In this document: positions 7,701-58,785 of the stretch, piece after piece
Layout: each line of letters opens with the position of its first letter
Position numbering within the stretch: position 1 is the first letter of the stretch
From: Cyanidioschyzon merolae
Taxonomy: Eukaryota
Strand: one strand, 5' to 3'
Assembly (NCBI GenBank): GCA_000091205.1
Contig: AP006490.2
Length of the DNA: 64,000 nt
The notes under the pieces: model-generated
Databases searched by the model: none
The model's input: only the letters and a program-made list of their open reading frames with translations
What the model was told of the DNA's origin: nothing
Position numbers and translations under genes: made by a program

Positions 7701-7899
7701 CGCCATCGCACCAGCAGACTGTATCCGAAGCAACGCACAGTACCAAACGCGTTCTTCTATGACAGGTAACGCGCACGCGACAAAAGTGTTGGCGTCTGCG
7801 TTGAACGCAGCTCGATGCCATCGCGCTGCGGTTTGCGCAGGCGGTTTCCCGCTGCGCCTCAGCGGTGCGCTGTGATCTCCGGGGTCGCCACGAGACGCC

Positions 7900-8747
7900 C
7901 GTCGACGCTGCGCCAGCAAACGGCGCGCTGCTGTGCGCCGAGGAACGCGCTGTCCCGTATCTGGGGGGCAGAGGTGCGCACAATCGGAAGTTATGTACAA
8001 TATATAGCATAGTTATATATTTATGTCGCAGGCCAGCACACGGCGCGCTGCTGTGCGTCGAGGAACGCGCTGTCCCGTACCTGGAGGCAGAGGTGCGCAC
8101 AATAAAAAGTTATGTACAATATATTGCATAGTTATATATTTATGTCGCAGGCCAGCACACGGTGCGATGTTGTGCGTCAACGCGCTGTCCCGTACCTGGG
8201 GGCAGAGGTGCGCACAATCGGAAGTTATGTACAATATATAGCATAGTTATCTATTTATGTCGCAGGCCAGCACACGGCGCGCTGCTGTGCGCCGAGGAAC
8301 GCGCTGTCCCGTATCTGGGGGGCAGAGGTGCGCACAATCGGAAGTTATGTACAATATATAGCATAGTTATATATTTATGTCGCAGGCCAGCACACGGCGC
8401 GCTGCTGTGCGTCGAGGAACGCGCTGTCCCGTACCTGGAGGCAGAGGTGCGCACAATAAAAAGTTATGTACAATATATTGCATAGTTATATATTTATGTC
8501 GCAGGCCAGCACACGGTGCGATGTTGTGCGTCAACGCGCTGTCCCGTACCTGGGGGCAGAGGTGCGCACAATAAAAAGTTATGTACAATATATTGCATAG
8601 TTATATATTTATGTCGCAGGCCAGCACACGGCGCGCTGCTGTGCGTCGAGGAACGCGCTGTCCCGCACCTGGGGGGCAGAGGTACGCACAATAAAAAGTT
8701 ATGTACAATATATTGTATAGTTATCTATTTATGTCGCAGGCCAGCAT
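7900..8747. repeat. Tandem minisatellite of about 7 copies with a 112-120 bp period.
   Basis: The unit gtcgcaggccagcacacggcgcgctgctgtgcg[cc/tc]gaggaacgcgctgtcccgta[t/c]ctgg[g/a]ggcagaggtgcgcacaat[cgga/aaaa]agttatgtacaatatat[a/t]gcatagttatatatttat recurs at 7921, 8041, 8159, 8275, 8395, 8513 and 8631. One variant lacks gaggaa. Each unit carries an AT-rich, TATA-like core. Confidence 0.9.
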
Positions 8748-21910: not shown

Positions 21911-22187
21911 CTGAGGTCTGCAGCATCCGCCGTGCTATGCACACACACACACACAAACACACAACGAATGTACAACACGAACGGCAGCGCTGATGCGAAT
22001 GTGCAGTATCCGCCGTGCTATGCACACACACACACACACACACACGAACAGACAACGAATGTACAGCACGAACGGCAGCGCTGATGCGCATGTGCAGTAT
22101 CCGCCGTGCTATGCACACACACACACACACAAACACACACGAACAGACAACGAATGTACAACACGAACGGCAGCGCTGATGCGCATG
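21911..22187. repeat. Three tandem copies of a 91-93 bp unit, each containing a (CA)n microsatellite.
   Basis: The unit cag[c/t]atccgccgtgctatgcacacacacacaca...acgaatgtaca[a/g]cacgaacggcagcgctgatgcg[a/c]atgtg starts at 21911, 22004 and 22095. It lies in the 750-bp 3' intergenic region between the convergent XPB and SMC5 genes. Confidence 0.85.
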
Positions 22188-25200: not shown

Positions 25201-26494
25201 CTCCAAGTCCGATGCATATTCCTGCTACAATCGAAGACTTGCCGCTGCCATTGGGGCCCACCACGAGATTTAGGGTCCTCCCAGGCCTAATCTCCATTTC
25301 ATCGAACGCGAGAAAATGGTGCAGTCGGAGACGCAGGAGTTGACCTCGACGCCAGCCCGCTGTCTCTTGCCCGGAGTGACACGATTCGGTCACTGTTGCA
25401 GCAGGGTCCAGTTGAATATGGCGCTTATCGCGATGTAGTCGCGGCCGCATTGCTGTCGTCGCCGTCGCGGCATCCGCGGGGCCAGGTTGCGATAGCGCAG
25501 CGCTTCCATGTAGAGCACTGCCTGCTGCTCTGGATGGACCACTGGATGTGACCAATCCAGTGGCAACACGTAGCGCAGGAGCTGGCGATACCTTCCCTGC
25601 TGTGTCCGCGACCTGATCCGGGCCAGTCAGAGTCTCTGCAGTAGAGCAGCGTCCGAGAGCCGCGGGCAGCGCGCTCGCCTCGCTGTGCGCTTTCTCGTCA
25701 TGAACGTCGCTCTCATCGTCGCTGCTTGAGGCAGCAGTAAGCGCTCGTTGGCTCTCGGGCCCGGTGAACGTGTTCAGTGCGGGCGGTAACGTGCGTGTGC
25801 TGGCCGTTCGGGAGCACTGGGGTATCGACTCCGGTGAAAGTCGCTTCGAGGGCGACTCGCTGCTGTCGCGCTGTGCGCGCGAAGCTACCCGCACTACTGC
25901 TGCTTCTGCTGTTGCAGCGGCGGGAACAGTAGATCTACCGTATGTGCTCGATGCGCCCCTGAAAAATTGTTCAAGCTCTTCTTCGGGCACTTGTGCACGT
26001 GTCGATGACTTTGCCGCATTACCTCGCTTCCGAACGTTAAGACGTGTCTCGCGTGTTCGTGGTGATACCTGTGCTTCCGCCTGGGAGCATTCCGCGCCTG
26101 TTGCGACTTGCGTTTTCGATGTATGCTCTGCCGTCGAGCGCCCGCTTCGAGCGGTACCGTGCTTGTGGCCTTCTTGTATCGTTTCAGGGGCGGCGGATGT
26201 GGGTCGCTGCTTGCGTTTCGCAGTAGCTTGCCTGTCCGAGTCCGCCGCGGACGTCAGGTCGGCACGACTGCCGTAGTAAACATCTACCCTCTTATGGGCC
26301 GCATGCCTTTCAGGTTCTTTTCGGATGTGCGTTCGCTTTCGGGACGGTGAGGTCGCCACAAGAGCGGGCTCGTGATCGCTCTCCGAATCACTGCAGAAGG
26401 CAAAGGGATCATCGCTTGCCGCAGTGGGTGACTCAGCGTCGATGCCCCGTCGGAGGCTGCTTTCTCGCCTCTTTTGTTGCTTTACCCGAGGCAT
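22226..26494 (-). CDS. SMC5: SMC5 (structural maintenance of chromosomes 5) with an unusually long disordered N-terminal extension.
   Basis: The track ORF starts at GTG (26584), and the first ATG is at 26494..26492. Walker A region: GQLLRLRLHHFLAFDEMEIRPGRTLNLVVGPNGSGKSSIVAGICIGLGGK. C-terminal signature and D-loop: LSGGEKMVATMLFLLAMQRHARPPIRVIDEINQGMDPHNERAI. Long coiled-coil arms lie between. About 400 aa rich in Ser/Ala/Thr/Arg precede the Walker A motif. Confidence 0.85.
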   Translation of the reverse strand: MPRVKQQKRRESSLRRGIDAESPTAASDDPFAFCSDSESDHEPALVATSPSRKRTHIRKEPERHAAHKRVDVYYGSRADLTSAADSDRQATAKRKQRPTSAAPETIQEGHKHGTARSGRSTAEHTSKTQVATGAECSQAEAQVSPRTRETRLNVRKRGNAAKSSTRAQVPEEELEQFFRGASSTYGRSTVPAAATAEAAVVRVASRAQRDSSESPSKRLSPESIPQCSRTASTRTLPPALNTFTGPESQRALTAASSSDDESDVHDEKAHSEASALPAALGRCSTAETLTGPDQVADTAGKVSPAPALRVATGLVTSSGPSRAAGSALHGSAALSQPGPADAATATTAMRPRLHRDKRHIQLDPAATVTESCHSGQETAGWRRGQLLRLRLHHFLAFDEMEIRPGRTLNLVVGPNGSGKSSIVAGICIGLGGKLELLSRAPVLSSYIKHGCERARIDVELFDPDASGTRRRISRSFSRDGRGGFTLDGESVSKRTIEELCAHYDIQLDNICTFLPQERVPELVECTPTELLRQTIRAVFGSAALEAFEALAEQQANGAAWASRLAAHEARLADWIRQNEALEAQLRFYEERQALLQEIEQMRLYRPYCIYEICRQEAIAARDAFKTVDRVYRAKCADWERLCAPLRAMQQEWLQLQHERDAQKQVLSDLSVAARQQQADMNEALARFDEANDALARLAQDLAERKRNYEGCQHKVERLETELAALMQRTGTEAELEKRIEEKRRERQQIAERLLSVSDAMRNLEQQHLAPLQSQFQELQNQRDRLRNIRQQRLALIQRRNPHSQVIECYQFITAQREAGRFRGQVWGPLPLEVRTSDAFYSDVLETVLGGWLEVVFVFEHPEDERIVFQESQRNHWRVNTIALVRPDVSLAPPAPVASVEPLGVRAFLSDCFEAPENLKKALADAVPIHLIAVADAEAGRHVRELALKHRVYAVFTPQNGYRSRLSRYNAESVSIRVEALQRRRAGLYAMPDERQVAQLDDQLAQLDAQRAHWRAQAAALAEQEKALRIQERSLQQELASLLEDRKQLRHAQQRLTMQRSLMETIARDLQNTAKDDEKRKRWQRAASEAAHHYAQLVIAGAEQLAQHQAAIAALVERTWLMLDKQRLLSAGERSLATAALEMQTLLQQRDDARQRVDEAKSRMRQKRQEAEAVAPLTAALQQQLRAWQFPTSVEELDERIARAQARADALTSVSAEVVQVYERRQQQIEALRQQLERERAQHATALRELHQESQRWLRDLRTLVRSISLAFSRLLQQLHCAGQVDLLEDEELRRLALRIQVQFRANEPLRTLSAQHHSGGEKMVATMLFLLAMQRHARPPIRVIDEINQGMDPHNERAIIQMMMEEAQVSDDASSQFPQTLLVSPKLLLDLKYNQQLVMHCVWNGPHMRLQADGDSSESTSA

Positions 26495-27239
26495 AGAGCA
26501 GCTCTCGACGGAACTGGAATTTCGTGCAACCCTGCTTGGAACCAAGGGGCAAGACGTAGAAGCGTGCCAACGACGCTGCTGCACTGTCAGGCACGAGGTC
26601 GCGCCAGCTCCCCAGGCACCGCAAGCGTGACGCTGTGTGCCCGAACCTTGCGATCAGCACCCTCGTAAGCTATTCAGCGGCTGCAGTACCTGAAGTTCCT
26701 CTTTCTGGAGCGTTCCGTAAACACTCACTGATGATCAACCGCTTCGTTGGAGTAAGTTCCGCAGCAAAACGCGCCAAAACGGTGTGAACGTTTTGCGCGC
26801 CGCTTTTGGCGCGTTCTACGACACCTGCTGAAAAGTGCGCTGTGCTGTGCTGTGCAGCGCTGCATACGCATAGAGAAACTCAAAGAGCAGTGAGGTTTTG
26901 AATACCTCGATCAGCGTGCTTTTTGTTCTTATTGGTTCGTATGTCAGGTATTGAACGAATGGGGAGCACCCAGTCGATAGGGAAAATGTCAAGGAAAGCA
27001 CTTGTGCTGTCACAGTTAACGAACGAGACGTGTCTTTGTTCGACCTGTCAGTTATTCAACGATCTGCGGGGAGAGGAACCATCCTTCTCGTTGTCCTTGT
27101 TCTAGAAATCGTACACCCAAAATGGAACCCTTCAAACTCTATTCCTATGAGTTCGCTCTTGCCAATTAATTCCATTCTATACGTTCTTTAAGACCTAGTA
27201 CAAAACTAGTCACAGGATGCCGAGGTTCCGTACTGCTGC

Positions 27240-28514: not shown

Positions 28515-28972
28515 GCCATAAAGTATGATACCATCCTCAAAACCCATATACGGGGCAAACATTGTCGCCATAAAGTATGATACCATCCTCAGAACCCATA
28601 TACGGGGCAAACATTGTCGCCATAAAGTATGATACCATCCTCAGAACCCATATACGGGGCAAACATTGTCGCCATAAAGTATGATACCATCCTCAAAACC
28701 CATATACGGGGCAAACATTGTCGCCATAAAGTATGATACCATCCTCAAAACCCATATACGGGGCAAACATTGTCGCCATAAAGTATGATACCATCCTCAG
28801 AACCCATATACGGGACAAACATTGTCGCCATAAAGTATGATACCATCCTCAGAACCCATATACGGGGCAAACATTGTCGCCATAAAGTATGATACCATCC
28901 TCAAAACCCATATACGGGGCAAACATTGTCGCCATAAAGTCTGATACCATCCTCAGAACCCATATACGAGAC
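28515..28972. repeat. Tandem minisatellite of about 9 copies with a 52-bp period.
   Basis: The unit ccataaagtatgataccatcctca[g/a]aacccatatacggggcaaacattgtcg repeats perfectly at 52-bp intervals (for example at 28567 and 28619). The array lies inside the AT-richer ORF-free island. Confidence 0.9.
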
Positions 28973-36559: not shown

Positions 36560-37312
36560 GATGCTGGGAAGTTTTGTCGCAGATAAAGATTCAGCCTCTC
36601 GTGTCGCCTTCGACGGTGCAGGACTGAAGCACCTATGCGCTGCGCAGCATCAACGCGAACGGTTAGAGACAGACAGAAAGGGAATCGCCAACGACTCTGT
36701 GTGTTGCGTGAACTTCAGACAGAGCTTGCACACCGTGATCAAGGTTCGTTCAAGCGCTCTTGGTGGTGCAGTCAAGGGTGTTGTGCGTGGCTATCATAGT
36801 GCTTTTAGCGCTGGTATCGTTGCTGCACGGAGGCGGAGCGGCCTGACAACGTCTTGAGAGAGACGTCGGCTCCAGAAAGTGCGGCTTCCCGTTGTGTGCC
36901 CGTCTAGCGCCTGCATCTGGTTCTTATGGAGAAGCGCGTTCCGATACGGCTGGAAGCGTTGTCGGTGTGAAGGCAGCGCCATCGTCTCGCCGAGCACGGT
37001 GGCGCTAGTACGCGCGAATGCATGCCGGGCCTCCGCTGCTGACTGGCGGTGCTTCACGTGGCAGCACGTTCACGCAAGGAACAACAGCGCGTTCAGAGCG
37101 TTGCGTTGCCAGCGAGTGCCGGGGTTGCACTGCGCTACAGCCTAATGGCGTTGCTCACCTGCATGGACTAAGTGCCAGTTGGTGGATTCTGCAAAATACG
37201 GGGATTCGCTTTGATCGAATGCGAGCGCACGCCAGATGCTTCTCGGAACGCAATATGTCGTGCACGCGATCGGCATTGACGGAGACCGCACTGAGTGTTT
37301 CTTATGCAAATG

Positions 37313-37689
37313 CACTGAACAGTAGCGCATTGCTCGAATAAGCCCATGATAGGCGTCTTCCATGGATGATGTATATCGTTCGTACGTAATTGCACGAGCG
37401 CAGATACACTGAACAGTAGCGCATTGCTCGAATAAGCCCATGATAGGCGTCTTCCATGGATGATGTATATCGTTCGTACGTAATTGCACGAGCGCAGATA
37501 CACTGAACAGTAGCGCATTGCTCGAATAAGCCCATGATAGGCATCTTCCATGGATGATGTATATCGTTCGTACGTAATTGCACGAGCGCAGATACACTGA
37601 ACAGTAGCGCATTGCTCGAATAAGCCCATGATAGGCATCTTCCATGGATGATGTATATCGTTCGTATGTAATTGCACGAGCGCAGATAC
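37313..37689. repeat. Four tandem copies with a 94-bp period.
   Basis: The unit cactgaacagtagcgcattgctcgaataagcccatgataggc[g/a]tcttccatggatgatgtatatcgttcgta[c/t]gtaattgcacgagcgcagata starts at 37313, 37407, 37501 and 37595. It lies in the divergent intergenic region between the 35006..36559 gene and the cytochrome-b5-reductase-like gene. Confidence 0.9.
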
Positions 37690-38938
37690 ATAAAAGGTTT
37701 TCGCTCGTTCATGCGGTATCCTCGGCGATGCATCCATCCCATACACACCAAGCATCGATGCTGCGTCGAGTGTAGGTCACCGTAATCCGTACGAATCCAT
37801 TCCCGCCCCCGGGCAACTAGGACTCCATGCTGACGTCTTTCATGCGACTGCAACTAGGCGACGGATTCCGGTTCCGCAGATGCTTCATAGATTGTTTGCT
37901 TGTTTGCTCATCTAGTTACACATATTCAAATGACCACCAGACTTGCATGACGAAAACGACCGCGTTGCTGCACGATCATCTCGGGCTAATGCGAGACTCG
38001 TCCTCATGCACGAAAGGCCAAGTTCGGGGTTCATTCAAGTTCTTCCTAGCGATGCCACGCTCTTGCAAGCGCTCGATCTACACCGATGATCGAGACCGTC
38101 TCCAGACCTAGTCAGGACGCAAAGTCCATTCTGAGGCCCGCTTCTCGTCCCGTGACGATAGAGCGTACGTACCTCAATTATAGCGTTTCGTCGGTGAGTG
38201 TGCGGCGCATCATAGCGATGCTGCGTAGGCCAATGGTTATAGCTTTGTACGCTGTGCTGGGCAGCCGAAGGAGTTGAATGCCGTTCGAGTGCTCTGTCCG
38301 CTCTATATTGGACGCGAAACAACTGCTGTCACAATTGACCAGAGAAATGGCTATCCGGTTGGTTAGTATTCGGGAGAGAACGCTCGAAAAGACTGCGCTC
38401 TACCAAACGTTCACTTTCTTTATGCAGTCGTTGCGCGTCGCATGGACTTTGGGATGCATTCTGAACGAAGGTTACGCTTCAGGTAGTATCGGCCTGCACA
38501 AGCAGAGAGTGAGAGAGACAAACCTTGTCTGTGCTGCTCTTTGTGGGCGAAGGCCGATACAGTCTGCGCATCTTTTTTTTCTGGCAGCGTCTGTGAACGA
38601 GTATTCCGCGCCTTCATCCCCGACAACGCCTAATCAGGACATCATGGACCTCCATATGCTACTCTGAACACACCCATGTATGCCACATCATTAATAGGCG
38701 TCAAGGACTCAATGTTGGGATCTTTTATCCTGCTTGAAGATTGATCAGTTCGTGACAGGCCTGAGATACCACCAACGCACACCTGGCACAGTTGGAACGG
38801 CGACGACCGCCTTGCCTCTCCAAACGCCCGGCGCACCGTATAGTCTTTTTGGCTACGAAGCGAGCCCGTTGTCGTGCCGAGCTCTCGAGCGGTCCGCATC
38901 ATACTTCGCGGACGGTGCTCGTTTCACTTCGTGCTCAA

Positions 38939-42701: not shown

Positions 42702-42870
42702 GGGCGCTTCACCCATATCAAAGCGTTCCAGTCGGGGCCAGGAAACGCTGATCTTAATGATTCGACGTAGAGGAGGTTTCTCGTACGTATTTCTGTGTAT
42801 ATGAAAATGCTTCACCCGTATCGGAGCGCTCCAGCCCGAGGCAGGAAACGCTGATCTTGCCTATTCGACG
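42702..42870. repeat. Diverged two-copy tandem duplication of about 60 bp per copy.
   Basis: cttcacccatatcaaagcgttccagtcggggccaggaaacgctgatcttaatgattcgacg is followed by cttcacccgtatcggagcgctccagcccgaggcaggaaacgctgatcttgcctattcgacg. It lies at or just beyond the 3' end of the PUS1-like gene. Confidence 0.7.
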
Positions 42871-45182
42871 CAAGCAACTCCTTGTATATCCACTGCTCGA
42901 TCCGTGTAAAGACGCTCACAGTACGCGAGGCATTCTACAGTGCTTGGCTGACGAGGCAGTTTCCCATTTTCAGCTGCTGCCTGTAGTTCTTGGCGCAGTC
43001 TTGCGAGCTCGGGACCTGGCAGCAGATTGAAATGGATCGCCATTGTCGTTTGGATACCACGCGGAAGTTCCACAGTGCTACCCGCCCGGTGCGCTTTCTG
43101 TGGGTCCGTAGGCATTGACTGATGTCGCCTTTCCTCTGCAGCAGCGGTAACACGCTCTCGCCACAGCCGATATTGTTCCACGAGTTGCTCTTGATGACAA
43201 TACACAACCTTAGCACCTTGTGCCGGATCGAGAAAAGCTTTCCATTCTAGCTGACCAATGGCGCATACCTGGGGAATTAAGGTTTCCTGCCGAAAGCGCT
43301 GCATTCGCGCCTTGATCCTGGGACTCGGGACCAGTCGGAAGAGACGACGACGTGGATCCCAGAACGATGGTTGATAGAGCATCAGGCAGGAGCCGGGAGC
43401 GCGCCAAAAAACTACTCGATAGGGACCTTCAAGGGCGGCCTCTAACGCTTCTAGGGATAGATGGCCCCGAGCCACAAGGATCCCAGCACCGATGAGCCGC
43501 CGAATCTGATGGAGCACGAACGACTGACCTCGAACACGCACGAGGAGAAAGTCACACCCGTGATCATCCCTGCTCAAAAAGGGCTCTACATGGAAACGGT
43601 AGAGCGTTCGAAGATAATAGGGTCGGCGGAGGCGATCCAGGTGCGCAACGGGATACGCGACCTGCACCATGCGGCGAAACGGCTCCCGCGCTTCCAGCTG
43701 AACGCAGCGTGCATCATCGTGCTCGATAGGAGCCCGCTCCTTGTCCGGATGAATCTCTTGAATGACTTGCTTTGCGATATCCAGTTCTTGTTGAAAGCGT
43801 GATGGCGGGCGTGTCGTTGTGCGGGCTTGCATCGTTCCCTCCATTTCGCCTTGTGCACTGGCGTTGTTCCCGTGTCCATTCTGTGATTCGGATTCGTGAT
43901 GAGGAACTGGTCCATGCGATGATCCATCCGCATCGCTCTGTTCTTGTTCGTTTCCCTGCAAATCTGCACGATTGCGTTTGGCAGCTGCTGCCTGTACGCT
44001 CGCCCCCGAGCCTGATCGATAATGCGCCGCTGGAGATGTTGTACCAAAAAAACCTTGCGCTCGATCATCCCGAAAGCGATGCAGTGATGCGCGCCCCTTC
44101 TCATCATCATCTCGCTCGCATTGCTCGCCAGCCGTCGCATTCATCCATGTCCGGGTAGAAGCATCGGCTTCAGCGCCATCACTGCGGGATTCATGATGAT
44201 CATCTCGATCACAATCGATAGCCTCATCCTCATCGTCATCCCCATCTTCATCGTCGACATCGTCGTCATTGTCATCATCGGCCCCGTCCATGTCGCCGTT
44301 GAGCACTTTCGCTAGCGCATCATGACTCGTCTGCTTCCCGCGTCCTTGGATTCTGCGCTCTTTCCCACTAAAATTATGAAAGCGATGTGTTCCTTCGAAG
44401 CAGCGTAATGCCTGAAGGAATAGGTCCTCGCGTCCATCCAGCACCCAACGCGGCAGCAGGTAATCGTACTCACGCAGGGTGCACGCGGAACGAGCGCGGA
44501 AACCCTTGCTCATGCGTTGGCCCCCGAAAACTCGAATATTTGGTGGCAACTGGGCGTTGAGTCTGTCCACGAAAAGATCAGTTAGTTCGTCATTGCTCGT
44601 GAGGTCGCGTCTGAGGTCCAGTAGCAGTTTTGCCGACACGACATTGGCCACTGCGTGCACGCCCTTGTCGGTACGGGACGCTCGCGACCAGCAGATCTTG
44701 CTCAGTTTCATAAAGTTCAGTTCCGTTACTGCACCAATTCGATAGAGCGCTTGCGCAAGCTCGCCCTCAACGGTGCCATCGCGCAAGTCCACGGCTCTAT
44801 CGCCCGAGCCGGCCTCGTTGGCGGCAGTTGCCACTGGTTGCCGGCGTCGCGGCTCAAGAACCTGTGAGCCACGAAACTCCGTGCCAGCGTACCCGAACCA
44901 TAGGGCAATATTCCTTTTCTTCAAATTGTCTGTGGACTCAGAAGAAGCAGACTCGCTCATCGCTGAAAGCCACCGATGAGCAGTGAGCCTGATTGGCCTC
45001 GCTAGCGGGTACCAAAGCCGCTCTGGTTTGCAGCCACTAGTCCCTAACTGCTGGTCTCTGCGTAGCGTACGTGAACCTAGTTGCGTAGCGCTTCGTGTCC
45101 AAGGAAGCGTCCGTCCTCGAGAGAGGCAGCCAATGTCGGAAACACCCCAGGAGGACCAGCAAACCGTCCACAGACGCGGCAT
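42861..45182 (-). CDS. PUS1: TruA-family tRNA pseudouridine synthase, PUS1-like, with a very long acidic low-complexity insertion.
   Basis: ATG at 45182. The conserved domain starts IALWFGYAGTEFRGSQV. Catalytic-Asp motif: RTDKGVHAVANVVSAKL. PUS1-type blocks: FEGTHRFHNFS and GQSFVLHQIRRLIGAGI. About 250 aa separate these blocks, including NGDMDGADDDNDDDVDDEDGDDDEDEAIDCDRDDHHE and Ser/Gly/Asn/His-rich stretches. The first 75 aa before MSESASS... may be a targeting peptide or not translated. Confidence 0.8.
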   Translation of the reverse strand: MPRLWTVCWSSWGVSDIGCLSRGRTLPWTRSATQLGSRTLRRDQQLGTSGCKPERLWYPLARPIRLTAHRWLSAMSESASSESTDNLKKRNIALWFGYAGTEFRGSQVLEPRRRQPVATAANEAGSGDRAVDLRDGTVEGELAQALYRIGAVTELNFMKLSKICWSRASRTDKGVHAVANVVSAKLLLDLRRDLTSNDELTDLFVDRLNAQLPPNIRVFGGQRMSKGFRARSACTLREYDYLLPRWVLDGREDLFLQALRCFEGTHRFHNFSGKERRIQGRGKQTSHDALAKVLNGDMDGADDDNDDDVDDEDGDDDEDEAIDCDRDDHHESRSDGAEADASTRTWMNATAGEQCERDDDEKGRASLHRFRDDRAQGFFGTTSPAAHYRSGSGASVQAAAAKRNRADLQGNEQEQSDADGSSHGPVPHHESESQNGHGNNASAQGEMEGTMQARTTTRPPSRFQQELDIAKQVIQEIHPDKERAPIEHDDARCVQLEAREPFRRMVQVAYPVAHLDRLRRPYYLRTLYRFHVEPFLSRDDHGCDFLLVRVRGQSFVLHQIRRLIGAGILVARGHLSLEALEAALEGPYRVVFWRAPGSCLMLYQPSFWDPRRRLFRLVPSPRIKARMQRFRQETLIPQVCAIGQLEWKAFLDPAQGAKVVYCHQEQLVEQYRLWRERVTAAAEERRHQSMPTDPQKAHRAGSTVELPRGIQTTMAIHFNLLPGPELARLRQELQAAAENGKLPRQPSTVECLAYCERLYTDRAVDIQGVACVE

Positions 45183-46736
45183 ACAACGACGACTCGCCCC
45201 GAGTCCGCCACCCTGAAAGGAAGACTATCTAGCGAAGCGCCGCGCTGCAAAGTCGCAGCCGCCGCCAGTTTGGAAGCGTTGGTGCCGTCAGACAGAGCGG
45301 CTTCGCTGCACTGCCGTACTTGGGAGCAGGTACCTTTTTGTCGGGGACTGGGGGTCGCCAGTATTTGGGGACGTGGTAGCGGGCACTGCCGGGTTGACGA
45401 GCTCAGGTTTGCACGGGTGCACTGCAGGGCGGGCGGGCGGGAGGTGCTGTTGAACTGGGGTCCTCCGGGGCACCAGCTGTCGCTCACGCGCTGACAAAGT
45501 TGCTCGGGTGCTAGGAGCTCAGATCTGAACCCAAGTGACCCCAGTGAGAGTCTTTGCTGTCACAGGCAGCCTTTCATTGGACCGGTTGTGGTAAAGAGTG
45601 CGGAATCGAGGGAGGAGTTGGTTTCTGCACCTAGCGCTGTGTGCTGGTGCGGCTGTGGCTGCTCTCTGGCCTGAAAGAGCAGCTTCCGAGCCTTGGATTC
45701 CGGTTGCGGTAGACGATCAATCTGAAGGGCCAAAGACCAGGAGCGTTGTATGTCCAGCTCTGAACAGACTAGAAAACACAGCAGTTCCGTTGCGTTTGTG
45801 CTCGTCATGCAGCTCCTGGAGAGTGCTCGTTGCCTTGGAGCGCCGCATCAGGCGAAACGGTACCCGCCTTTGTGTTTTGGTCCAGAAAACAAGCTCTCTT
45901 TAGACTGAATACGACTTCGAGAGTTCTCTACCTGCAAGCTCGTTGCGGAGAGCTGTCCTTGGTTTCCTTGCCCAGCGGCGCGGTGCGCGAAGCAGATGCT
46001 GATACGGGTCTCGGGTTGGGAGCACTGCAGGCGTGTCGTGGCGGAAACAACTCGGCCTTGCAACAGGCAAAGCCGACACCTCGGCCGGACATTTACATGT
46101 CATGGTATTTCTGAACGCCATGGCAAGCCCAGGTACCCGCGTGGACAAGCATAGATGCGAGTGTTGCGTTCGCAGCCTGGACGGATAGCGACAGGGTCAC
46201 GACGAGCCCCGTGGCGTTCCAACAGCGCTCACGAATGGGAAACACTTTGCGACTCATCTCCGGAGATACCTGTTGTGTCTATCGAAACTGGATATGCTGC
46301 GCGTCCGATTGCGGGCCTCTTCGATTCGGTCCTTGCTTTTTACGATGGACAGCATCCATCGTTCATCAGAGGAAGAAACCGCCAATGTTCACAGCAACAC
46401 ATTGTTTACCGCTTTCTGCTGGGACACCACCGAGTCTGCATCGTGAAGACAGAATCCGCTCGGGCTTGCAATTTGACGGCAAAGCGAGCTGTGGCATAGC
46501 CAGAGCGGGTACAGCGGCGGGCATCGTCTCGTGCCTCGTTTCGCCATGCAGATTCGAAGCGTACGTCCAACGATCTGCTCCATGAGAGACATGCCAAGCA
46601 ACGCCAACAATGACGATGCGCGACTCTTCCCGCTACACTGCACGCGGAGGTCCGCGATTCTGTACAGTGCATTCACCGCTGTCGAGGCGGAAGCATACTA
46701 TGCAGAGAGCCCTGCCCTCATCATCGAGCGGTAGAT

Positions 46737-46757
46737 GCAGCAGCAGCAGCAGCAGCC
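46737..46757. repeat. (CAG)7 trinucleotide microsatellite.
   Basis: gcagcagcagcagcagcagcc sits inside the ORF-free 45.2-48.0 kb region. Confidence 0.9.
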
Positions 46758-48065
46758 CTGCTGCACACCTTTCGCAGACAGGGTGCTGTCGGTGTGCGGA
46801 CTTGATCACCACGAGTTGCATACATCCTTGCAGGGTTGGTATTCCCGCCACGAGGCGACTGCTAGAGCACGCGCTCGTTCTAACGAAACGGGAGCGCTAT
46901 CGTGAGCGCACGCGATCCAACATCATCGAGAGCGTTTGTCGGAGCGCCTTCCGTCAGCATGCGCTCCGCTACCCCCTGTAAAGTACCTAACTCATGCCGC
47001 CCCAAATCGTCCATCGTTGGCTATGAGCAGACAGCGCGTCCCATGTGGAGCTTTCTCGGAAAGATCCGGCTCTGCCCAGCTCTCGCGTTCGTGAGATCGT
47101 CCTCGGAGGCATCGAATGAATCTGCGCTTTTCGTCGTCACCGCCTGGACGGATCGCGCTCAGCACAGTCCTTGATATTGCTACATTCAGCGCACTTACGA
47201 TTCTCGTCGTGTCAAAAAAGCGCTTCCGTTTGCAAGACAAATCTTCCTTTCTGTGTGGCCGTCGATACACCGACATTCGACAGCGGCAGCACCATTCGTT
47301 ACATAGGATATGCTCCCAGAGGCTCCCATATCTTCGGTCTGCATGGAAACGCGTCTAGGACTCGGAATTCAGTCCACGTAGTGATTGCATCCAGTGGAGC
47401 GGCTGTCACTGTACAGCACGACGGATGCGTCGATGACTCTAGATTTTCGAACTTGATCTCTCTTCTGGACTTTCATTTCGATACTTTAAAATCTTCATCA
47501 TGAACGACCCCGCGTTCTGCAAAATAATATTCCATTTGGAAAAGAGCGTACGCTTGCACGTCAAGCGGACAGCGTACTCGCCGAGCGCACTCTCCAGCGG
47601 AAGCCGCCATGCTTCGGATACGGCTCCGGAAGCAGAAACGAGGAGGGTTGTCGCGGATAGCCTACTGTAACTGCCAAGAGAAGGTACCGAACGGGTCACA
47701 TCTCCCTATATGACAGCGCTCAGGAGTGGAAGCGGCCTGAAGGATAACCGCACAGATATCTAAGCGCAGTTCCGCGTCACCGCCGTGAAGTCCACGCTGA
47801 TGCTCGATACAAAGCGGAAGAAAACAGCAAGCATATCAAGGATTGCATGTATCGTCTCCACTTGAAATGAGTCGACAATAACCAGAAGCAACGAAATCAG
47901 GATTGGAACGTTCCCATCAACATACCTCGACTGCCTGCATCGGATGTGAACACAAGGTAGACACTGATGTCTCTTACGCTCGAGACAAAAATAAAAAAGG
48001 AAGCAGTGGCAGAAAAAACGCACCCAAGCTAGTGTTGATGACAAAATTGGCAAGAGATCCAAACA

Positions 48066-49270
48066 TGAGCGTATACGCCCACGATAAGCCCTTGCACCCG
48101 TCGCATACGATCCTCCTGCCAGTTGATCCAGAGGTAAATCCGCATCTTCGAAGGATCAAGGCACGAGAGCGTATACACCCACGATAAGCCCTTGCAACCG
48201 TCGCATACGATCCTCCTGCCAGTTGATCCAGAGGTAAATCCGCATCTTCGAAGGATCAAGGCACGAGAGCGTATACGCCCACGATAAGCCATTGCACCCG
48301 TCGCATACGATCCTCCTGCCAGTTGATCCAGAGGTAAATCCGCATCTTCGAAGGATCAAGGCACGAGAGCGTATACGCCCACGATAAGCCATTGCAACCG
48401 TCGCATACGATGCTCCTACCAGTTGATCCAGAGGTAAATCCGCATCTTCGAAGGATCAAGGCACGAGAGCGTATACGCCCACGATAAGCCATTGCACCCG
48501 TCGCATACGATCCTCCTGCCAGTTGATCCAGAGGTAAATCCGCATCTTCGAAGGATCAAGGCACGAGAGCGTATACGCCCACGATAAGCCATTGCAACCG
48601 TCGCATACGATGCTCCTACCAGTTGATCCAGAGGTAAATCCGCATCTTCGAAGGATCAAGGCACGAGAGCGTATACGCCCACGATAAGCCATTGCACCCG
48701 TCGCATACGATGCTCCTACCAGTTGATCCAGAGGTAAATCCGCATCTTCGAAGGATCAAGGCACGAGAGCGTATACGCCCACGATAAGCCATTGCACCCG
48801 TCGCATACGATGCTCCTACCAGTTGATCCAGAGGTAAATCCGCATCTTCGAAGGATCAAGGCACGAGAGCGTATACGCCCACGATAAGCCATTGCAACCG
48901 TCGCATACGATGCTCCTGCCAGTTGATCCAGAGGTAAATCCGCATCTTCGAAGGATCAAGGCACGAGAGCGTATACGCCCACGATAAGCCATTGCACCCG
49001 TCGCATACGATGCTCCTACCAGTTGATCCAGAGGTAAATCCGCATCTTCGAAGGATCAAGGCACGAGAGCGTATACGCCCACGATAAGCCATTGCAACCG
49101 TCGCATACGATGCTCCTGCCAGTTGATCCAGAGGTAAATCCGCATCTTCGAAGGATCAAGGCACGAGAGCGTATACGCCCACGATAAGCCATTGCAACCG
49201 TCGCATACGATGCTCCTACCAGTTGATCCAGAGGTAAATCCGCATCTTCGAAGGATCAAGGCACGAGAGC
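48066..49270. repeat. Twelve tandem copies with a 100-bp period.
   Basis: The unit gcacgagagcgtatacgcccacgataagcc[a/c]ttgca[c/a]ccgtcgcatacga[t/c]gctcct[a/g]ccagttgatccagaggtaaatccgcatcttcgaaggatcaag repeats with exact 100-bp phase from 48066 to 49270. The 78-aa MAYRGRIRSRALILRR... ORF family on the minus strand is generated by this repeat. Confidence 0.95.
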
Positions 49271-49312
49271 GCGAAATCGCGCGCCTCTGCCGTTGATCCA
49301 GCGCGGGATTTC
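49262..49312. repeat. GC-rich inverted repeat (hairpin-capable palindrome) at the end of the 100-bp array, about 70 bp upstream of the RAD21 ATG.
   Basis: agcgcgaaatcgcgcgc - ctctgccgttgatccag - cgcgggatttcgcgcgct. gcgcgaaatc is the reverse complement of gatttcgcgc. Confidence 0.6.
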
Positions 49313-49380
49313 GCGCGCTATCGCCCTCATCCCTCGAGGCATTTTCCGTTGTTCTTGTGCTTGTTCTGTGAACGAGAGAA

Positions 49381-51702
49381 ATGTTTTATGCGACCAGTCT
49401 CATCAAACGGCGCAGTTCATTCGCCAAAGTTTGGATTGCAGCAACACTCGGGACCGAACGTCTTCCTCGGTCCTTTCTGATTCGTGTAAGCATTGCTCGT
49501 ATCTGCAGGGAACTGCTAGAGACGATCCATATCAATGCCCTGTCATTGCGACTGGAGGCACTGCTTCTGGTCGGCATTGCGAGAATCTATGAGCGACAGG
49601 TACTACTGTTTTGCACGCTTGCGGAAGATTGGTTTAGCCGGGAGCGGTTACAAGCACGCGTCTGTATACTGTCCACCGATGGACGACAGCACGACGATTC
49701 CGCAGCGGCAGGCGCAGAGGTGGCATCAGATGCTAGTGTCGCTACAGACGCGAATGCCGCGGACGCTGACCAGTTTGCTGCGAGGAATTCGCGAGATACG
49801 CGCTACCTGTTGCACCGGATCGGGGCCAGCAGGCGGAAGCAGCTCTGCGCGCGCTACGGCAGCATCACCTGGGGCCCAGACTCGCGATCCTTGGAGCCGG
49901 TGCCCCAGCAGACGAATGCACCACATACATCTGGTGAATATTTCGCCCATGTTGATGTGCTCTGGCATCTGTACGACTCGGAGCTTTACGGGCGTCACGA
50001 AAGAGCCGCGTTGCTCGCTGCACCCCAGCATGGGTTGGTGGCGACGGCGGCGGCAGCCATGCAACCCTATGAGCTTGCGGCATCTGTTCCCGAAGCCGCC
50101 ACCGAGCCGAGCGGGAGCGTCGAGCGCGCCTGGCCGCTCTCGCCGACACCGTTTCGTGTCAACGACCAGGACACCATTACATTGAGACAGCCGCGAATTG
50201 AGTTTTCGTCTGGCAGTCTGTCGATCATTCCCCAGCTCGATGAACGGGAGAGATTCCCCGAGGACCGCGATGCAAGCGGTGACTCGAGCATCGCTCCCCG
50301 GCGACTATTAGAGGCCCTCGATGCTGCTGCTCTGGCGCTGATCCCAGATGACACAAGTGCACAGACGAATATGGCTCCATTACCCAATCATGGCAATGAA
50401 ACGACTACTGGGCATGCTCAAGACGCACCGCAACGTCTTGTCCCGAATTCGGTGCCAACGAAGGAGCAGCAGGAACGTTTGGGATCGCAACGATCGCTTC
50501 GTCGTCGCAATGCATTGTCGAGCGTAGCCTGTTTGCAGCTTGATGAGCTGGATGCGCTCGCGCTACCACCGAGGCGATTGCAAATGAATATGCATCACAC
50601 ACGGGATCTCGTGCTCGCTTGCCAGCAATCAAATCGCAGCACCAACAGTGCCACTGCAGCGCAAGGTCCCTATCACCAGTCACCGGGCACGGAGGCAGGC
50701 AGTGCTCCAACGCAGTTGCAGCGTCTCACACAGTCTCTCGATGAGAACACATACGTAAGCAACTTGCTCGCGACAAAAGACTTCGTTTATCGATGTCTTA
50801 GCCAAGGTATCTTTGCGGTTGCGGTGGCACGCACCAGCCGCCTCAGAGCTATTTTCGAGGCAGTGCTCCGCCCACATTTCGAAGCACAGCCTCAAAGGCC
50901 AGCTACGGATCCAAAGGACATGCATGGCATGCCACATGCTGGGGAAGAGCGTCATCCGCCACCAGAATCTGAGGACAACGCTCAGCTGCGAGCATCATTG
51001 CCGCAGTCTGCGTCATTTTCTGGAAGCGCTCCGGAGCGATTACGCGGTTATGCTACGGCTGATGGATTCGAGGTGCCCTCACTGGATACAGACACACCAG
51101 GCGCCTACGCGGTTGCCCTTCGTGCAGCCTCATCCGAGCACTCTGCATCGCTGCCGAGAATGACGGTGCCTGATCTGAGGCTATCGGGTGTTCCTGCTGC
51201 GCGGTCTCCATTGGATAGCGGAGACCAATGCTCCCCAGGTTTAGCGATGTCAAGAATACACACAGAACTTATGCCTGTCATGGAGAATGCAGGGCAAGGC
51301 ACATCCCATGCCTCGATAGTGTCCATCGAGGGCGACCGCAGGCCAACCGTAACGCCTCAGTCGTATCGCGAAACACTCATTCGTTGCATCGAGAGGCAGC
51401 GCGCCGGAGACGCCAGCAGTCCAGGTTCATGTCGCTGGGTCAACTTTTCCGCCCTGCTCGGTGCTTTTGTTTCCGCGTTCGACGCCAAAAACGACACACC
51501 AAGCGCACAGAGCACAGAAAATCAAACAAAGCCGTATCCCGCGGCTTGGAGCCGGCCCTGCGCGGCGCTGCTGTTCGCCACCACTTTGAAGCTCGCGACC
51601 ACAGGACAGGTTACCGCCCACCAAACAACGCCGTATGGAAGCATTGCACTGCACTGGAACGGTGACAAGGACCCGGGCACCGCGCCGATTGCGGCGTCCT
51701 AG
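49381..51702 (+). CDS. RAD21: Cohesin kleisin subunit of the RAD21/SCC1/REC8 family.
   Basis: ATG at 49381. The N-terminal kleisin domain is MFYATSLIKRRSSFAKVWIAATLGTERLPRSFLIRVSIARICRELLETIHINALSLRLEALLLVGIARIYERQV, matching MFYsqfiLaKkGpLAkiWlAAhw...LSLRLsGqLLLGVVRIYsRK. The C-terminal winged-helix block is RPCAALLFATTLKLATTGQVTAHQTTPYGSIAL, matching sRkeAArlFyqvLvLaTkgyIkveQeePYGdIli. The middle is long and low-complexity. Confidence 0.85.
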   Translation: MFYATSLIKRRSSFAKVWIAATLGTERLPRSFLIRVSIARICRELLETIHINALSLRLEALLLVGIARIYERQVLLFCTLAEDWFSRERLQARVCILSTDGRQHDDSAAAGAEVASDASVATDANAADADQFAARNSRDTRYLLHRIGASRRKQLCARYGSITWGPDSRSLEPVPQQTNAPHTSGEYFAHVDVLWHLYDSELYGRHERAALLAAPQHGLVATAAAAMQPYELAASVPEAATEPSGSVERAWPLSPTPFRVNDQDTITLRQPRIEFSSGSLSIIPQLDERERFPEDRDASGDSSIAPRRLLEALDAAALALIPDDTSAQTNMAPLPNHGNETTTGHAQDAPQRLVPNSVPTKEQQERLGSQRSLRRRNALSSVACLQLDELDALALPPRRLQMNMHHTRDLVLACQQSNRSTNSATAAQGPYHQSPGTEAGSAPTQLQRLTQSLDENTYVSNLLATKDFVYRCLSQGIFAVAVARTSRLRAIFEAVLRPHFEAQPQRPATDPKDMHGMPHAGEERHPPPESEDNAQLRASLPQSASFSGSAPERLRGYATADGFEVPSLDTDTPGAYAVALRAASSEHSASLPRMTVPDLRLSGVPAARSPLDSGDQCSPGLAMSRIHTELMPVMENAGQGTSHASIVSIEGDRRPTVTPQSYRETLIRCIERQRAGDASSPGSCRWVNFSALLGAFVSAFDAKNDTPSAQSTENQTKPYPAAWSRPCAALLFATTLKLATTGQVTAHQTTPYGSIALHWNGDKDPGTAPIAAS

Positions 51703-52040
51703 CGCATCCGAACGAGGCGAAACTTGAGCGGGTTCTCCGTCCTCTGAACCTGCACTTCACCGTTTTCTATCAAATGGAGCAAGATACCGTTGTAGTTCAC
51801 GTCAACAAATCGCAACGTAAACGGAAATTCCTCGTCTTGCTGCGGCTTTCGCCAGAACCACCGTCGAGTTCTCGGGCGCGTCACCCAGGATACCCGCGGC
51901 AAGGGGCTTGTGTTCGCGATCAGGCCAACTGCCTGACAACAGCTACGAAGGAAGCTTTCTTTACTCTTCCCAATATCGAAGACTCGGACGAACTTGGGCG
52001 CTGGTGGTTTCGCCTCGCTATAGATCGTGTCCTCTTCCAT
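51699..52040 (-). CDS. Small hypothetical ORF of about 113 aa, convergent with RAD21 and overlapping its stop codon by 4 nt. Coding status is uncertain.
   Basis: The track ORF 51699..52046 starts at TTG, and the first ATG is at 52040 (MEEDTIYSEAKPPAPKFVRVFDIGKSKESF...EFPFTLRFVDVNYNGILLHLIENGEVQVQRTENPLKFRLVRMR). The composition is neither repeat-derived nor low-complexity. No family was recognised. Confidence 0.2.
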   Translation of the reverse strand: MEEDTIYSEAKPPAPKFVRVFDIGKSKESFLRSCCQAVGLIANTSPLPRVSWVTRPRTRRWFWRKPQQDEEFPFTLRFVDVNYNGILLHLIENGEVQVQRTENPLKFRLVRMR

Positions 52041-54045
52041 ATGCAACCTATTTGTCGGGTACGGATAGCGTCAAACGCACGCTCTTACCGTCGAGTCTGT
52101 GATACAAAAGCCTGTCCTTCGAACACTGCAAGCAGCGCAGCAGCAGCGGCGAGCGCAGGGTGCAATCGCCACCTGGGCGACGACGGCGCCGCAGCGCGCT
52201 CGTGTCGAAGCACTCTGCAGTGTAGCTGCAGTAGCAGCACTGCAGCTTAGCAGCAGAGATTTTCTGGACAAAGGCGGAAATGTGCTGCCTGATTAAGTGA
52301 TGGACGCTGCTGACCTAATCGAGCTCGTTGTCGGATCCGAATACGGGGTAAGCTTCGACGCGCACGGTGAACTGCATTCTTTTGGGGTACATGCCTCGGG
52401 CGCAAGATCGTTGCATATAACGAGGGATGAGCGAGTATTTTACTGCTGTCGGCATGAAAGGAAGCGGCTGTCATTCCGTGCCAGACCTCCAGTGCGTGCA
52501 CCAGGTGTGCGGGTGTCCGGATCCGGCACTAGAACAAAAGCTGATGAGGGTCGCACACTCGCTTCCGCCCTAGCGCAGTGATTGAATGAATCTCAGCTGT
52601 TACGCACTTGCCACCTTCTGCTTCATCACCTATGCAGGCTAACGCCCGATACAATCAGCACAATCATGATGATGCTGATGGTGTTGGCAGTCCTGGTTCA
52701 AGAATGTGGCAGCGCAAAGATAATGCGCAGCGGGCTTTCGTCTCTATAAGCTGAACTTTTACGTGTACCTGATCCTGCTCACGAGCCGAATTTGTTGCTA
52801 TTTGCGCGGGCATGCCGCATCACCGTTCCACAGCCCAGGCGTTGCTCGTCCGTAACACTCCATCGTCATCCGAGTCGTAGCACAGCATCTCAACGTCTGC
52901 CGCGGGCTCCCAGTGTCCCGGTCAAACAGCTGTGTCTCTATCCAGAACTGGCTCTATTCAAGAGCGCAAGGATCGCGCCATATCTAAAAACTGTTCCATG
53001 TTCTTTCCAGGCAAACGGCGCCCAGGAAACGCTTTCCAGCCCTTGCCTTGGTCCATAACCCGTGCCTGCGTCGGATCCACAAAAGTCGGCCCCGACGGTA
53101 GGTTCGACTGCGTGGTTGCCGGACGCACCCGCACACCCGGCGCGGCAGCGCCACGTGCCGGCGTCCGCGACCCCGTTTTAGCTGCAGCAGAGGCTGCACT
53201 TCCGCCACTCTTCGCAGCTTTGCCCGAACCAAGACTTACCTTCGGAAGCGACGGAAGAGAGGGTAGTTTACCGGGCAGCTTAGGAAAACCAAGCTTTGGC
53301 AGCTTGATAGCGAACCCCTGGGCAGGAGCGTACCGGCCGCGCAACTGCAGGTCACCGGCGAGTGCCACACCAGCACCCAGAACAAGCGCTGCAGTATTCC
53401 AGTGCGCAGCACTCAAAGCACCTTGTGTGAAGACCGCTGCACTATTCATGACGTATATGAGCAAGAGTCGACGAAACCGCACCCTGTCGATACACAATCG
53501 TCGAAGAGCGCTGCGCGAAGTTCCTTAATGTAGCGATTGAGCTCGCGCTGAGCGCAGCGCTGCCGCCGGAGGTGCACGATCGCGGCGAGCTGCACGCGCT
53601 GTCAACATTCGATGCGGGTGACTGAGGCGCGTTCGCTGCGCGCTGAACCGGACACGGCAGTAGGACGTAAGAAACGACCAGAATATCCGAGAAGAAGTAT
53701 AGGTAATGTAACTTGGAGGTAGGGTGTTTGATGAATACTTCACCGTGCACTGAAAAAAACACAAAAAGAAAGGTAAAAGCGCGCAGTCGGAGAATACTAG
53801 CCAAAGTAAACGTTCTGTCAATAAAAAAACTAGCCGCAGCGGTCTGCGCTGATCACACATTTCCTATTGCCGCTGGTGCCGCTGGTGCCGCTGCTGGTGC
53901 CGCGAGAAGATTGCGCTGTTGTCTCTATATCCTTGACCACGTTCTCGTTCGTAGAATCCGCTTACGCTTCGTGCTCCGGGGGTTCTCTCATCAGGTTTCA
54001 CTTGGAAAGCGACTCTGGGCGAATCGCTTCGGGAGCAGAGCCTGA

Positions 54046-57832: not shown

Positions 57833-58019
57833 GAACAGGAGCGCGTTCACTGTGGACCTCAAGGAGCGCCTCAGTAAGCAACCTCTGTCCTACGTTCATC
57901 GCCGCTCGGTAGCGCTCGTCGACGTCGTGGCGCGCTGGACACGTCGCACTTCCGCTGGCCGATCGCGGGCGACATCCGTGGCGCAGCGCACGCATTGCGT
58001 ATGGTGCGTGTTGATCTTC

Positions 58020-58785
58020 GATTTTCGTCTGATGGAACGTTTATGGATGGTGCAGGGATACCAGCTTCCTTGATGGATATTCGTGCTTGGCGTTGCGTCT
58101 AATCGTTCGTCTTCACTCTGCCTTCAAGTTCCATGATTGATACATATCCACTGGGTGTACAGAGAGACAGTCGATTTTCGTCTGATGGAACGTTTATAGA
58201 TGGTGCAGGGATACCAGCTTCCTTGACGGATATTCGTGCTTGGCGTGGCGTCTAATCGTTCGTCTTCACTCTACCTTCAAGTTGCATGATTGATACATAT
58301 CCACTCGGTGTACAGAGAGACAGTCGATTTTCGTCGGATGGAACGTTTATAGATGGTGCAGGGATACCAGCTTCCTTGATGGATATTCGTGCTTGGCGTG
58401 GCGTCTAATCGTTCGTCTTCACTCTACCTTCAAGTTCCATGATTGATACATTTCCACTGGGTGTACAGAGAGACAGTCGATTTTCGTCTGATGGAACGTT
58501 TATGGATGGTGCAGGGATACCAGCTTCCTTGATGGATATTCGTGCTTGGCGTGGCGTCTAATCGTTCGTCTTCACTCTACCTTCAAGTTCCATGATTGAT
58601 ACATATCCACTGGGTGTACAGAGAGACAGTCGATTTTCGTCTGATGGAACGTTTATGGATGGTGCAGGGATACCAGCTTCCTTGACGGATATTCGTGCTT
58701 GGTGTGGCGTCTAATCGTTCGTCTTCACTCTACCTTCAAGTTCCATGATTGATACATTTCCACTGGGTGTATTGCTCATTCTCCA
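58020..58785. repeat. Five tandem copies with a 153-bp period.
   Basis: The unit gattttcgtctgatggaacgtttat[g/a]gatggtgcagggataccagcttccttga[t/c]ggatattcgtgcttgg[c/t]gt[t/g]gcgtctaatcgttcgtcttcactct[g/a]ccttcaagtt[c/g]catgattgatacat[a/t]tccactgggtgtacagagagacagtc starts at 58020, 58173, 58326, 58479 and 58632. It begins 160 bp upstream of the squalene epoxidase 5' end. Stop codons occur in all frames. Confidence 0.95.

Follow-up and report, generated by a model that had tools for sequence, protein, structure and literature searches.

What is a 1.2-kb block of nearly identical 100-bp repeats doing directly upstream of a cohesin-subunit gene in the alga Cyanidioschyzon merolae, and does it have any bearing on how that gene is expressed? 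A reading made from the letters of the DNA (hereafter, the sequence-only reading) had placed the block in what should be the promoter of a kleisin gene and had proposed that it could act as a regulatory or insulator element or as a fragile site. The answer depends on whether the array is real, on how widely and in which lineages it is found, and on how it is related to the short stretch that separates it from the gene. All positions given below are those of the window, i.e. the whole 64,000-nucleotide stretch of DNA that was analysed. The minisatellites of this window are not described in the C. merolae genome papers, and a note on the resequencing of strain 10D reports no nuclear repeat differences.

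The locus and its genes

The array is located on chromosome 8 of C. merolae 10D, within a divergent intergenic region of 4198 bp, of which it makes up 29 per cent. The array and the two genes that border the region are:

48067-49271, no strand assigned: minisatellite array with a 100-bp unit repeated head to tail 12.05 times, GC 53 per cent (TRF)
49381-51702, plus strand: CMH252C, Rad21/Rec8-like alpha-kleisin (cohesin subunit), 773 aa, exact match to BAM79899.1 (CYME_CMH252C)
42861-45182, minus strand: tRNA pseudouridine synthase I-like gene, the divergent neighbour, exact match to BAM79898.1, also identified by Pfam

The downstream gene had been called RAD21. Its product matches Pfam domains at both its N-terminal end (Rad21_Rec8_N, PF04825; E = 2.9e-16, 60 bits against a cut-off of 23.1) and its C-terminal end (Rad21_Rec8, PF04824; E = 2.1e-5, 24.1 bits against a cut-off of 22.7), which bears out its identity as a kleisin of the Rad21/Rec8 type, a designation that does not distinguish the mitotic from the meiotic paralogue. 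The gene is listed with an expression of about 100 TPM in a wild-type culture in sheet 1 of Table S1 of PMC11376382; no mention of CMH252C was found in the literature searched. A search for a hidden gene in the interval from the pseudouridine-synthase gene to the array yielded short ORFs only, without a Pfam match.

Structure and coding potential of the array

TRF reports a repeat with a period of 100, 12.1 copies, 98 per cent matches, no indels and a score of 2277, with a total length of 1205 bp. In a repeat search, the start-to-start spacing of the units is exactly 100 all along the array, and a 53-nt part of the unit that does not vary was found 12 times in the window and never in 100 shuffles. 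The near-perfect array of twelve 100-bp copies described in the sequence-only reading is thus present. Its end had been placed about 110 bp before the start codon, and the measured distance to the annotated ATG of CMH252C (49381) is 109 nt. Structurally, the array is a minisatellite, a class with head-to-tail units of ~10-100 bp that extend over 0.1-20 kb.

Pairwise identity among the 10D copies is 95-100 per cent, with a mean of 98 per cent. The copies differ at five positions of the unit (11, 25, 31, 46 and 52), and not at 3-4 positions as had been counted previously, and these five sites combine into seven haplotypes. All five are situated in the first half of the unit, an arrangement with a chance probability of only about 0.04, and positions 53-100 show no variation in any copy seen, either in 10D or in the metagenome strains described below. 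The invariant second half of the unit could reflect constraint rather than homogenisation.

Specifically, two 200-bp dimers are duplicated: copies 3-4 are the same as copies 5-6, and copies 8-9 are the same as copies 10-11, so the array grew partly by 200-bp steps. Together with the high copy-to-copy identity, these dimers agree with the earlier suggestion of recent expansion or homogenisation.

The minus strand of the array contains a set of open reading frames:

48029-49259, minus strand: overlapping 61-87-aa ORFs of the MAYRGRIRSRALILRR... family, a by-product of the repeat and not genes

The 78-aa MAYRGRIRSRALILRR... ORFs, which are on the minus strand within the array, had already been called spurious. 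We agree with this assessment: all six reading frames of the array contain stops, and a Pfam search of the repeat ORFs returned no match. No frame stays open for more than 99 aa, and the 100 bp of the unit are not divisible by 3. No match to Rfam was found in the whole window at the gathering threshold or in positions 45100-49450 at E<=1, and ARAGORN found no tRNA. On both strands and in two phases, the unit folds no better than its shuffles (z from -0.1 to -1.7); it therefore has neither the RNA-family match nor the better-than-chance folding expected of a small-RNA cluster. The array is without a protein product and without a match among known RNA families, as is usual for a non-coding minisatellite.

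Occurrence of the array in metagenomes

We gathered metagenome contigs that encode kleisin variants at least 98 per cent identical, and additionally scanned the JGI metagenome contigs with a 33-nt probe derived from the unit. The loci obtained (L001-L011) represent ten independent contigs from different samples, with L005 and L011 located on one contig. In the flanks of the array, the ten contigs are ~99.3 per cent identical to the window, and all ten have the same left or right junction with the array.

Eight of the ten contigs end inside the array, and the remaining two span it. The spanning contigs carry three copies (L001) and five copies (L005), compared to 12 copies in 10D, but both are short-read assemblies in which the repeat has probably collapsed. 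We treat these low numbers as probable collapse because a neighbouring 153-bp array is also reduced, from 4.9 copies in the window to 1.9 copies in L001. At the left edge of the array, copies 1-2 have one variant pattern that is common to 10D, L005, L009 and L010. Because the locus and its junctions are reproduced in independent contigs, the array is a genuine feature of the species, with the exact count of 12 resting on the reference sequence. The worry that the array might be an assembly artefact, which accompanied its first description, is largely removed by these ten contigs and their matching junctions.

No other copy of the unit was found in the 64-kb window, and the 33-nt probe matched four contigs in the JGI metagenome collection, all of which represent this locus. 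Within the window and the JGI metagenome contigs, the unit is therefore confined to a single locus, as expected of a minisatellite, and does not occur at several loci, as a dispersed satellite would. The sequence-only reading had raised membership in such a dispersed family as a point to be checked, and these searches speak against it.

Lineage distribution and companion arrays

A word-based search for kleisin homologues recovered only the protein's own 90 per cent cluster, whereas an exhaustive HMMER search identified two full-length orthologues, with 35 and 32 per cent identity. The corresponding loci, L012 (NCBI GCA_026122185.1) and L013/L014 (metagenomes), are from more distant Cyanidiophyceae. 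The gene order is kept at these loci (oxidoreductase, pseudouridine synthase, kleisin, inositol monophosphatase and squalene epoxidase), and the intergenic region between the synthase and the kleisin genes is 1.19 kb long in L012 and 1.16 kb long in L013/L014, compared to 4.2 kb in C. merolae. The array is absent from both syntenic orthologous loci. Since two syntenic intergenic regions are without such an array, we regard it as specific to the C. merolae lineage.

At L012, a (CGCA)10.5 microsatellite is situated at -111 to -70 relative to the kleisin ATG. The spot upstream of the kleisin gene seems to be repeat-prone in more than one lineage.

Within the window, the array has company. Six minisatellites, all of them intergenic, make up 6.1 per cent of the sequence, and the array upstream of CMH252C is the largest. 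No relatedness was found among the six window arrays, and the gene-proximal flanks of two of them (A1 and A6) have no homology to their own units. Half of the arrays (three of the six) stop 109-205 bp short of a start codon, and there are hints that the arrays are non-randomly related to promoters.

Relationship between the array and the proximal promoter

Two overlapping features occupy the space between the last full unit and the start codon:

49272-49380, plus strand: proximal promoter / 5' leader of CMH252C, 109 bp, invariant across the six metagenome strains in which it is covered
49267-49301, no strand assigned: degenerate, truncated "13th unit", consisting of the head GAGCGCGAAATCGCGC, a 31-nt deletion relative to the unit, and then CTGCC-GTTGATCCAG

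The array does not occupy the kleisin promoter outright, as the sequence-only reading had it, since a 109-bp proximal stretch remains between the array and the ATG. This stretch has no variable sites, compared to 13 per kb in the coding sequence; about 1.4 sites would be expected in a stretch of this length, and the difference is not statistically significant. It contains two inverted matches to the motif TTTSSCGC and can be recognised as a unit copy that has degenerated and been truncated.

The resemblance to the unit is as follows. In the right flank of the array, the terminal GAGCG is followed by the left arm of a palindrome and then by CTGCC-GTTGATCCAG, where 15 of 16 positions agree with unit positions 49-65. 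The local alignment of the right flank with the unit has a score of 25, which was reached by two of 1000 shuffles, and outside the 12 units and the right flank the window contains no copy of the 10-mer GTTGATCCAG. No homology to the unit was found in the left flank: its score is equalled by 505 of 1000 shuffles, and a 9-mer near-match there does not fit the register of the units and is no better than chance.

An intermediate form is present in one of the metagenome strains. The last full unit of L008 starts with GAGCGCGAAATCGCGCAC... and not with the usual GAGCGTATACGCCCAC..., and thus has the head of the palindrome arm on an otherwise normal unit. In a three-way alignment, the 10D flank corresponds to an L008-type head, the 31-nt deletion and the conserved middle of the unit. 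Because the right flank matches the unit better than nearly all shuffles and because the L008 unit is intermediate between the two, we conclude from their similarity that the array units are homologous by common descent to the proximal promoter. Either a promoter segment would have been duplicated, with its interior copies subsequently diverged and homogenised, or the promoter would be the degenerate edge of the array; these are two descriptions of one history. On either description, the locus would record the birth of a tandem array from a gene's own proximal promoter, with the L008 allele documenting an intermediate step.

The palindrome and candidate E2F sites

The palindrome that begins at the edge of the array consists of two arms:

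49269-49284, minus strand: palindrome left arm GCGCGAAATCGCGCGC, 16 nt, with TTTCGCGC on the minus strand at 49269-49276
49301-49318, plus strand: palindrome right arm GCGCGGGATTTCGCGCGC, 18 nt, with TTTCGCGC on the plus strand at 49309-49316

A GC-rich inverted repeat with 17-bp arms had been described here. The palindrome exists, but its arms are 16 and 18 nt long. When read by eye, the arms are complementary at 15 of 16 positions and are separated by a 16-nt spacer; an imperfect version of the palindrome has arms of 37 nt at 78 per cent. Hairpin potential of the region 49255-49335 is above that of shuffles (z = -3.1 on the plus strand and -2.7 on the minus strand). Since the left arm overlaps the TRF-defined array by 3 nt, the palindrome directly abuts it. 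The palindrome had been viewed as a separator between the array and the gene, but it is better read as a pair of cis-regulatory sites.

The in-vitro consensus of E2F is TTTSSCGC (PMC3069401). Both TTTCGCGC sites are exact 8/8 matches to this consensus in inverted orientation, 40 bp apart and 65-112 nt from the ATG of CMH252C, with the right one 65-72 nt upstream of the ATG. The proximal promoter therefore has the consensus matches by which an E2F-regulated promoter is recognized. TTTSSCGC shows no overall enrichment in the window (14 observed versus 14.9 expected). Inverted TTTSSCGC pairs within 50 bp of each other occur twice in the 64-kb window, compared to about 0.2 pairs expected by chance, as estimated from the density of the motif. 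The second pair (TTTGGCGC at 26771/26805) lies in front of an SMC5-like gene, 277-318 bp from the first ATG of that gene.

In the orthologous promoters, no TT(T)SSCGC was found in the 1.7 kb upstream of the L012 kleisin, and the L013 kleisin promoter has one 7/8 match to TTTSSCGC, inside a CGCGCG tract. All that the orthologous kleisin promoters share is a CGCGC-rich tract at about -60 to -110. The sites are thus not conserved, which is weak negative evidence given how distant these lineages are (35 per cent kleisin identity). In C. merolae, an RB-E2F-DP pathway activates S-phase genes (PMC8504449, PMC11376382), and the cohesin gene smc1 has an S-phase peak (PMC2646357).

We consider the chances slightly better than even that the TTTCGCGC pair represents E2F-DP sites of CMH252C. 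A competing explanation, which is possible but which we hold to be less probable, is that the palindrome is not an E2F pair at all and is either a generic CGCG-rich tract (CGCG-box, CpG-type, or prone to cruciform or Z-DNA formation) or the scar of the repeat's degenerate end. The orthologous promoters favour it, as they keep the CGCGC-rich tract and not the TTTSSCGC pair, and so does the chance-level frequency of the motif in the window. In human cells, moreover, TTTSSCGC is found in only 12 per cent of the top 10,000 E2F1 ChIP-seq peaks, which is the same share as in random promoters (PMC3069401). Yet the same orthologous promoters retain CGCGC, the core of E2F binding in vivo (PMC3069401), and a generic tract would not readily account for two exact inverted matches so close to each other and to the ATG of an S-phase-type gene, for the scarcity of such pairs expected by chance, or for the position of the sole other pair in 64 kb in front of another SMC-complex gene. 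If the E2F assignment is right, the pair would be a concrete candidate E2F element for a cohesin gene in an alga whose E2F targets are defined by expression only.

Explanations of the array

The explanation that we think probably correct is that the array is a locus-specific, young and ordinary promoter-adjacent minisatellite that is near-neutral, with the gene driven from the 109-bp edge and its putative E2F sites. The array would have originated by tandem duplication of a promoter-proximal segment of CMH252C. Replication slippage or unequal exchange would have enlarged it, by one and by two units at a time, and would have homogenised its copies. The copy at the outer edge, which is the least homogenised, would persist as the present 109-bp proximal promoter. 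It is this proximal stretch, and not the array, that would drive CMH252C, with the two inverted TTTCGCGC elements predicted to bind E2F-DP and to confer G1/S-phase expression on the cohesin gene. Having lost the E2F-like head, the interior units most likely serve as a near-neutral spacer whose copy number may drift between strains.

That the array is probably near-neutral is drawn from the absence of signal. We adopted this reading because the array is young, lineage-specific and accompanied by many other arrays. The regulatory, insulator and fragile-site roles originally proposed are weakened for related reasons, as the array is absent from two related lineages and five unrelated minisatellites are present in the same 64 kb. 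If right, the near-neutral reading matters little, and the array is one more unstable minisatellite.

We find it unlikely, although far from negligible, that the array is instead a functional cis-regulatory module composed of amplified, promoter-derived factor sites, whose role would be that of enhancer, factor sink or boundary element separating the divergent genes, and whose copy number would tune cohesin expression. Each unit has C[A/C]GTTGATCC-type and inverted GGATCAA motifs, and its CAGTTG / CCGTTG sequences would fit CNGTTR, the Myb core. CTGCC(A)GTTGATCCAG is also common to the unit and the spacer between the two E2F-like arms, and the 10-mer is found nowhere else in the window. The half-unit that bears these motifs is invariant in all copies and strains, but homogenisation alone would leave it so. 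In each of the three lineages, a GATCC-containing element precedes the ATG by ~70-90 nt, a pattern that was noticed post hoc and by eye. TTGATCC, however, has six copies outside the array compared to ~8 estimated from sequence length alone, and the RAD21 copy is the only one in a promoter. Tandem repeats in yeast promoters reportedly modulate expression, and the termination of three of the six window arrays within 109-205 bp of a start codon would fit such a role. Against it, the five other arrays are unrelated in sequence yet occupy comparable intergenic positions, and both related lineages lack the array while keeping the gene and its synteny.

A narrower version of this idea, which we regard as improbable, is that the array is a working and recently amplified promoter-derived block in which the number of copies would determine how much of the kleisin is expressed or when, or which would insulate the gene from its divergent neighbour. 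It takes its lead from the invariant half-unit, which carries the GTTGATCCAG element of the palindrome spacer. In a wider form of this reading, the minisatellites next to promoters in an otherwise minimal genome, 6 per cent of the window here, might generally give rise to differences in expression among hot-spring strains.

There is very little to recommend the view that the array consists of tandem small non-coding RNA genes (e.g. snoRNAs) or marks a centromere, a replication origin or a recombination hot spot. Tandem snoRNA arrays do exist in some protists, and minisatellites can act as recombination hot spots. A centromere is at odds with the GC content of the array (53 per cent), as the centromeres of C. 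merolae are said to be A+T-rich single regions without satellites. A hot spot would be compatible with the sexual cycle that is now known in the group (PMC13353863). RNA genes are contradicted by the lack of an Rfam match even at E<=1 and of a tRNA, by unit folding that resembles shuffles on either strand and in two phases, and by the absence of RNAi machinery from the alga (PMC11376382).

Similarly remote is the view that the array, or its 12-copy size, is an artefact of the reference assembly: the contigs that span it do have just three and five copies, but its presence and both junctions recur in ten independent contigs, short-read assemblers typically break in such an array (as in eight of the ten contigs) or collapse it (as with the 153-bp array of L001), the five variable sites make the copies distinguishable as seven haplotypes, and the reference has been described as finished and "100%-complete" (PMC1955436).

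Our verdict is thus that the array is a real but ordinary feature, whose sequence is already contained in the public finished genome and in automatic repeat tracks. C. merolae permits precise editing by homologous recombination, which makes the effects of promoter minisatellites testable in a eukaryote with a very small genome.

Comparison with known repeats and promoters

Like centromeric satellites and other satellite families, the array is arranged in tandem, head to tail, and its copies are homogenised. Unlike them, it is one 1.2-kb locus that is neither dispersed nor megabase-scale, and it is not A+T-rich.

In having two exact inverted TTTCGCGC sites near the start of a gene whose product S phase requires, the proximal promoter resembles the inverted E2F pairs of the adenovirus E2, DHFR and E2F1 promoters, a likeness that here is one of sequence and position; the p107 promoter has tandem E2F sites (PMC2891812). 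A further parallel is that S-phase genes of the host are driven by an RB-E2F-DP pathway (PMC8504449, PMC11376382). What sets the TTTCGCGC pair apart from these promoters is its lack of conservation in the orthologous promoters of both related lineages and its location in a degenerate repeat unit.

The closest counterparts are promoter repeats such as the human INS 5' VNTR, the MAOA uVNTR and the promoter repeats of yeast, which likewise consist of head-to-tail units, tens of bp long, upstream of one gene at a single locus. High identity among copies, two-unit duplications and a degenerate edge copy are further points of likeness. The copy number also differs between assemblies (3, 5 and 12), the first two figures being from short-read assemblies in which the repeat has probably collapsed. 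The array differs from these VNTRs in its 100-bp unit, which is at the long end of the range, and in that its unit appears, from demonstrable sequence matches, to be derived from the proximal promoter of its own gene.

Tandem repeats and promoter variation

Minisatellites make up 6.1 per cent of the window (six arrays), and all six arrays are intergenic. They show no sequence relatedness to one another, and three of the six end close upstream of a start codon. The C. merolae genome papers examined do not discuss these minisatellites.

Minisatellite arrays of the window
7912-8746, unit of 120 bp; gap of 205 bp to the ATG at 7706, minus strand
21940-22187, unit of 91 bp
28515-28968, unit of 52 bp
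37306-37690, unit of 94 bp
48067-49271, unit of 100 bp, upstream of the kleisin gene CMH252C; gap of 109 bp to the ATG at 49381, plus strand
58018-58771, unit of 153 bp; gap of 186 bp to the ATG at about 57832, minus strand

The metagenome contig L008, which represents one strain carrying the same kleisin locus, has a variant last unit in the array upstream of CMH252C.

L008 5988-6089, minus strand, variant last array unit of 102 bp, counterpart of the last unit before window position 49267

The head of this unit is GAGCGCGAAATCGCGCAC in place of GAGCGTATACGCCCAC, and GAGCGCGAAATCGCGCAC corresponds to the left palindrome arm, including TTTCGCGC; the L008 strain therefore has three E2F-like sites. 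The unit is a natural intermediate linking the array unit and the promoter.

In L012, the syntenic locus of a more distant relative (NCBI GCA_026122185.1), a microsatellite takes the place that the GC palindrome has in C. merolae.

L012 5890-5931, (CGCA)10.5 microsatellite, positions -111 to -70 relative to the kleisin ATG

The 9-bp microsatellite TGCCGCTGG, located upstream of an inositol-monophosphatase gene, has 2.9 copies in strain 10D (window 53868-53893) versus 11.9 copies in the metagenome strain L005 (10488-10594). This difference may be a genuine length polymorphism, because the 107-bp tract is perhaps short enough to be resolved by short-read assembly.

A second inverted E2F-consensus pair

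Besides the pair upstream of CMH252C, the window contains a single inverted pair of E2F-consensus matches. It precedes an SMC5-like gene with an SMC_N domain, whose first ATG is at 26494, and the distance from this ATG is 277-318 bp.

26771 (minus strand) and 26805 (plus strand), within 26760-26820, inverted pair of TTTGGCGC, matching the consensus

An additional TTTTGCGCGCC is located between the two matches.

Annotation of neighboring genes

The pseudouridine synthase has 773 amino acids in the reference annotation, whereas gene callers applied to metagenome contigs consistently place its start 74 codons later (699 amino acids).

44961-45182, minus strand, annotated N-terminal extension of the pseudouridine synthase

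The gene calls suggest that the annotated extension may not be translated, in which case the intergenic region would be 4.4 kb long.

Directly after CMH252C, a published expression table (PMC11376382) lists CMH254C, described as a "hypothetical protein", with a value of about 5,500 TPM. Its likely candidate is an ORF within 51703-54045.

52958-53497, minus strand, ORF of 163-179 amino acids
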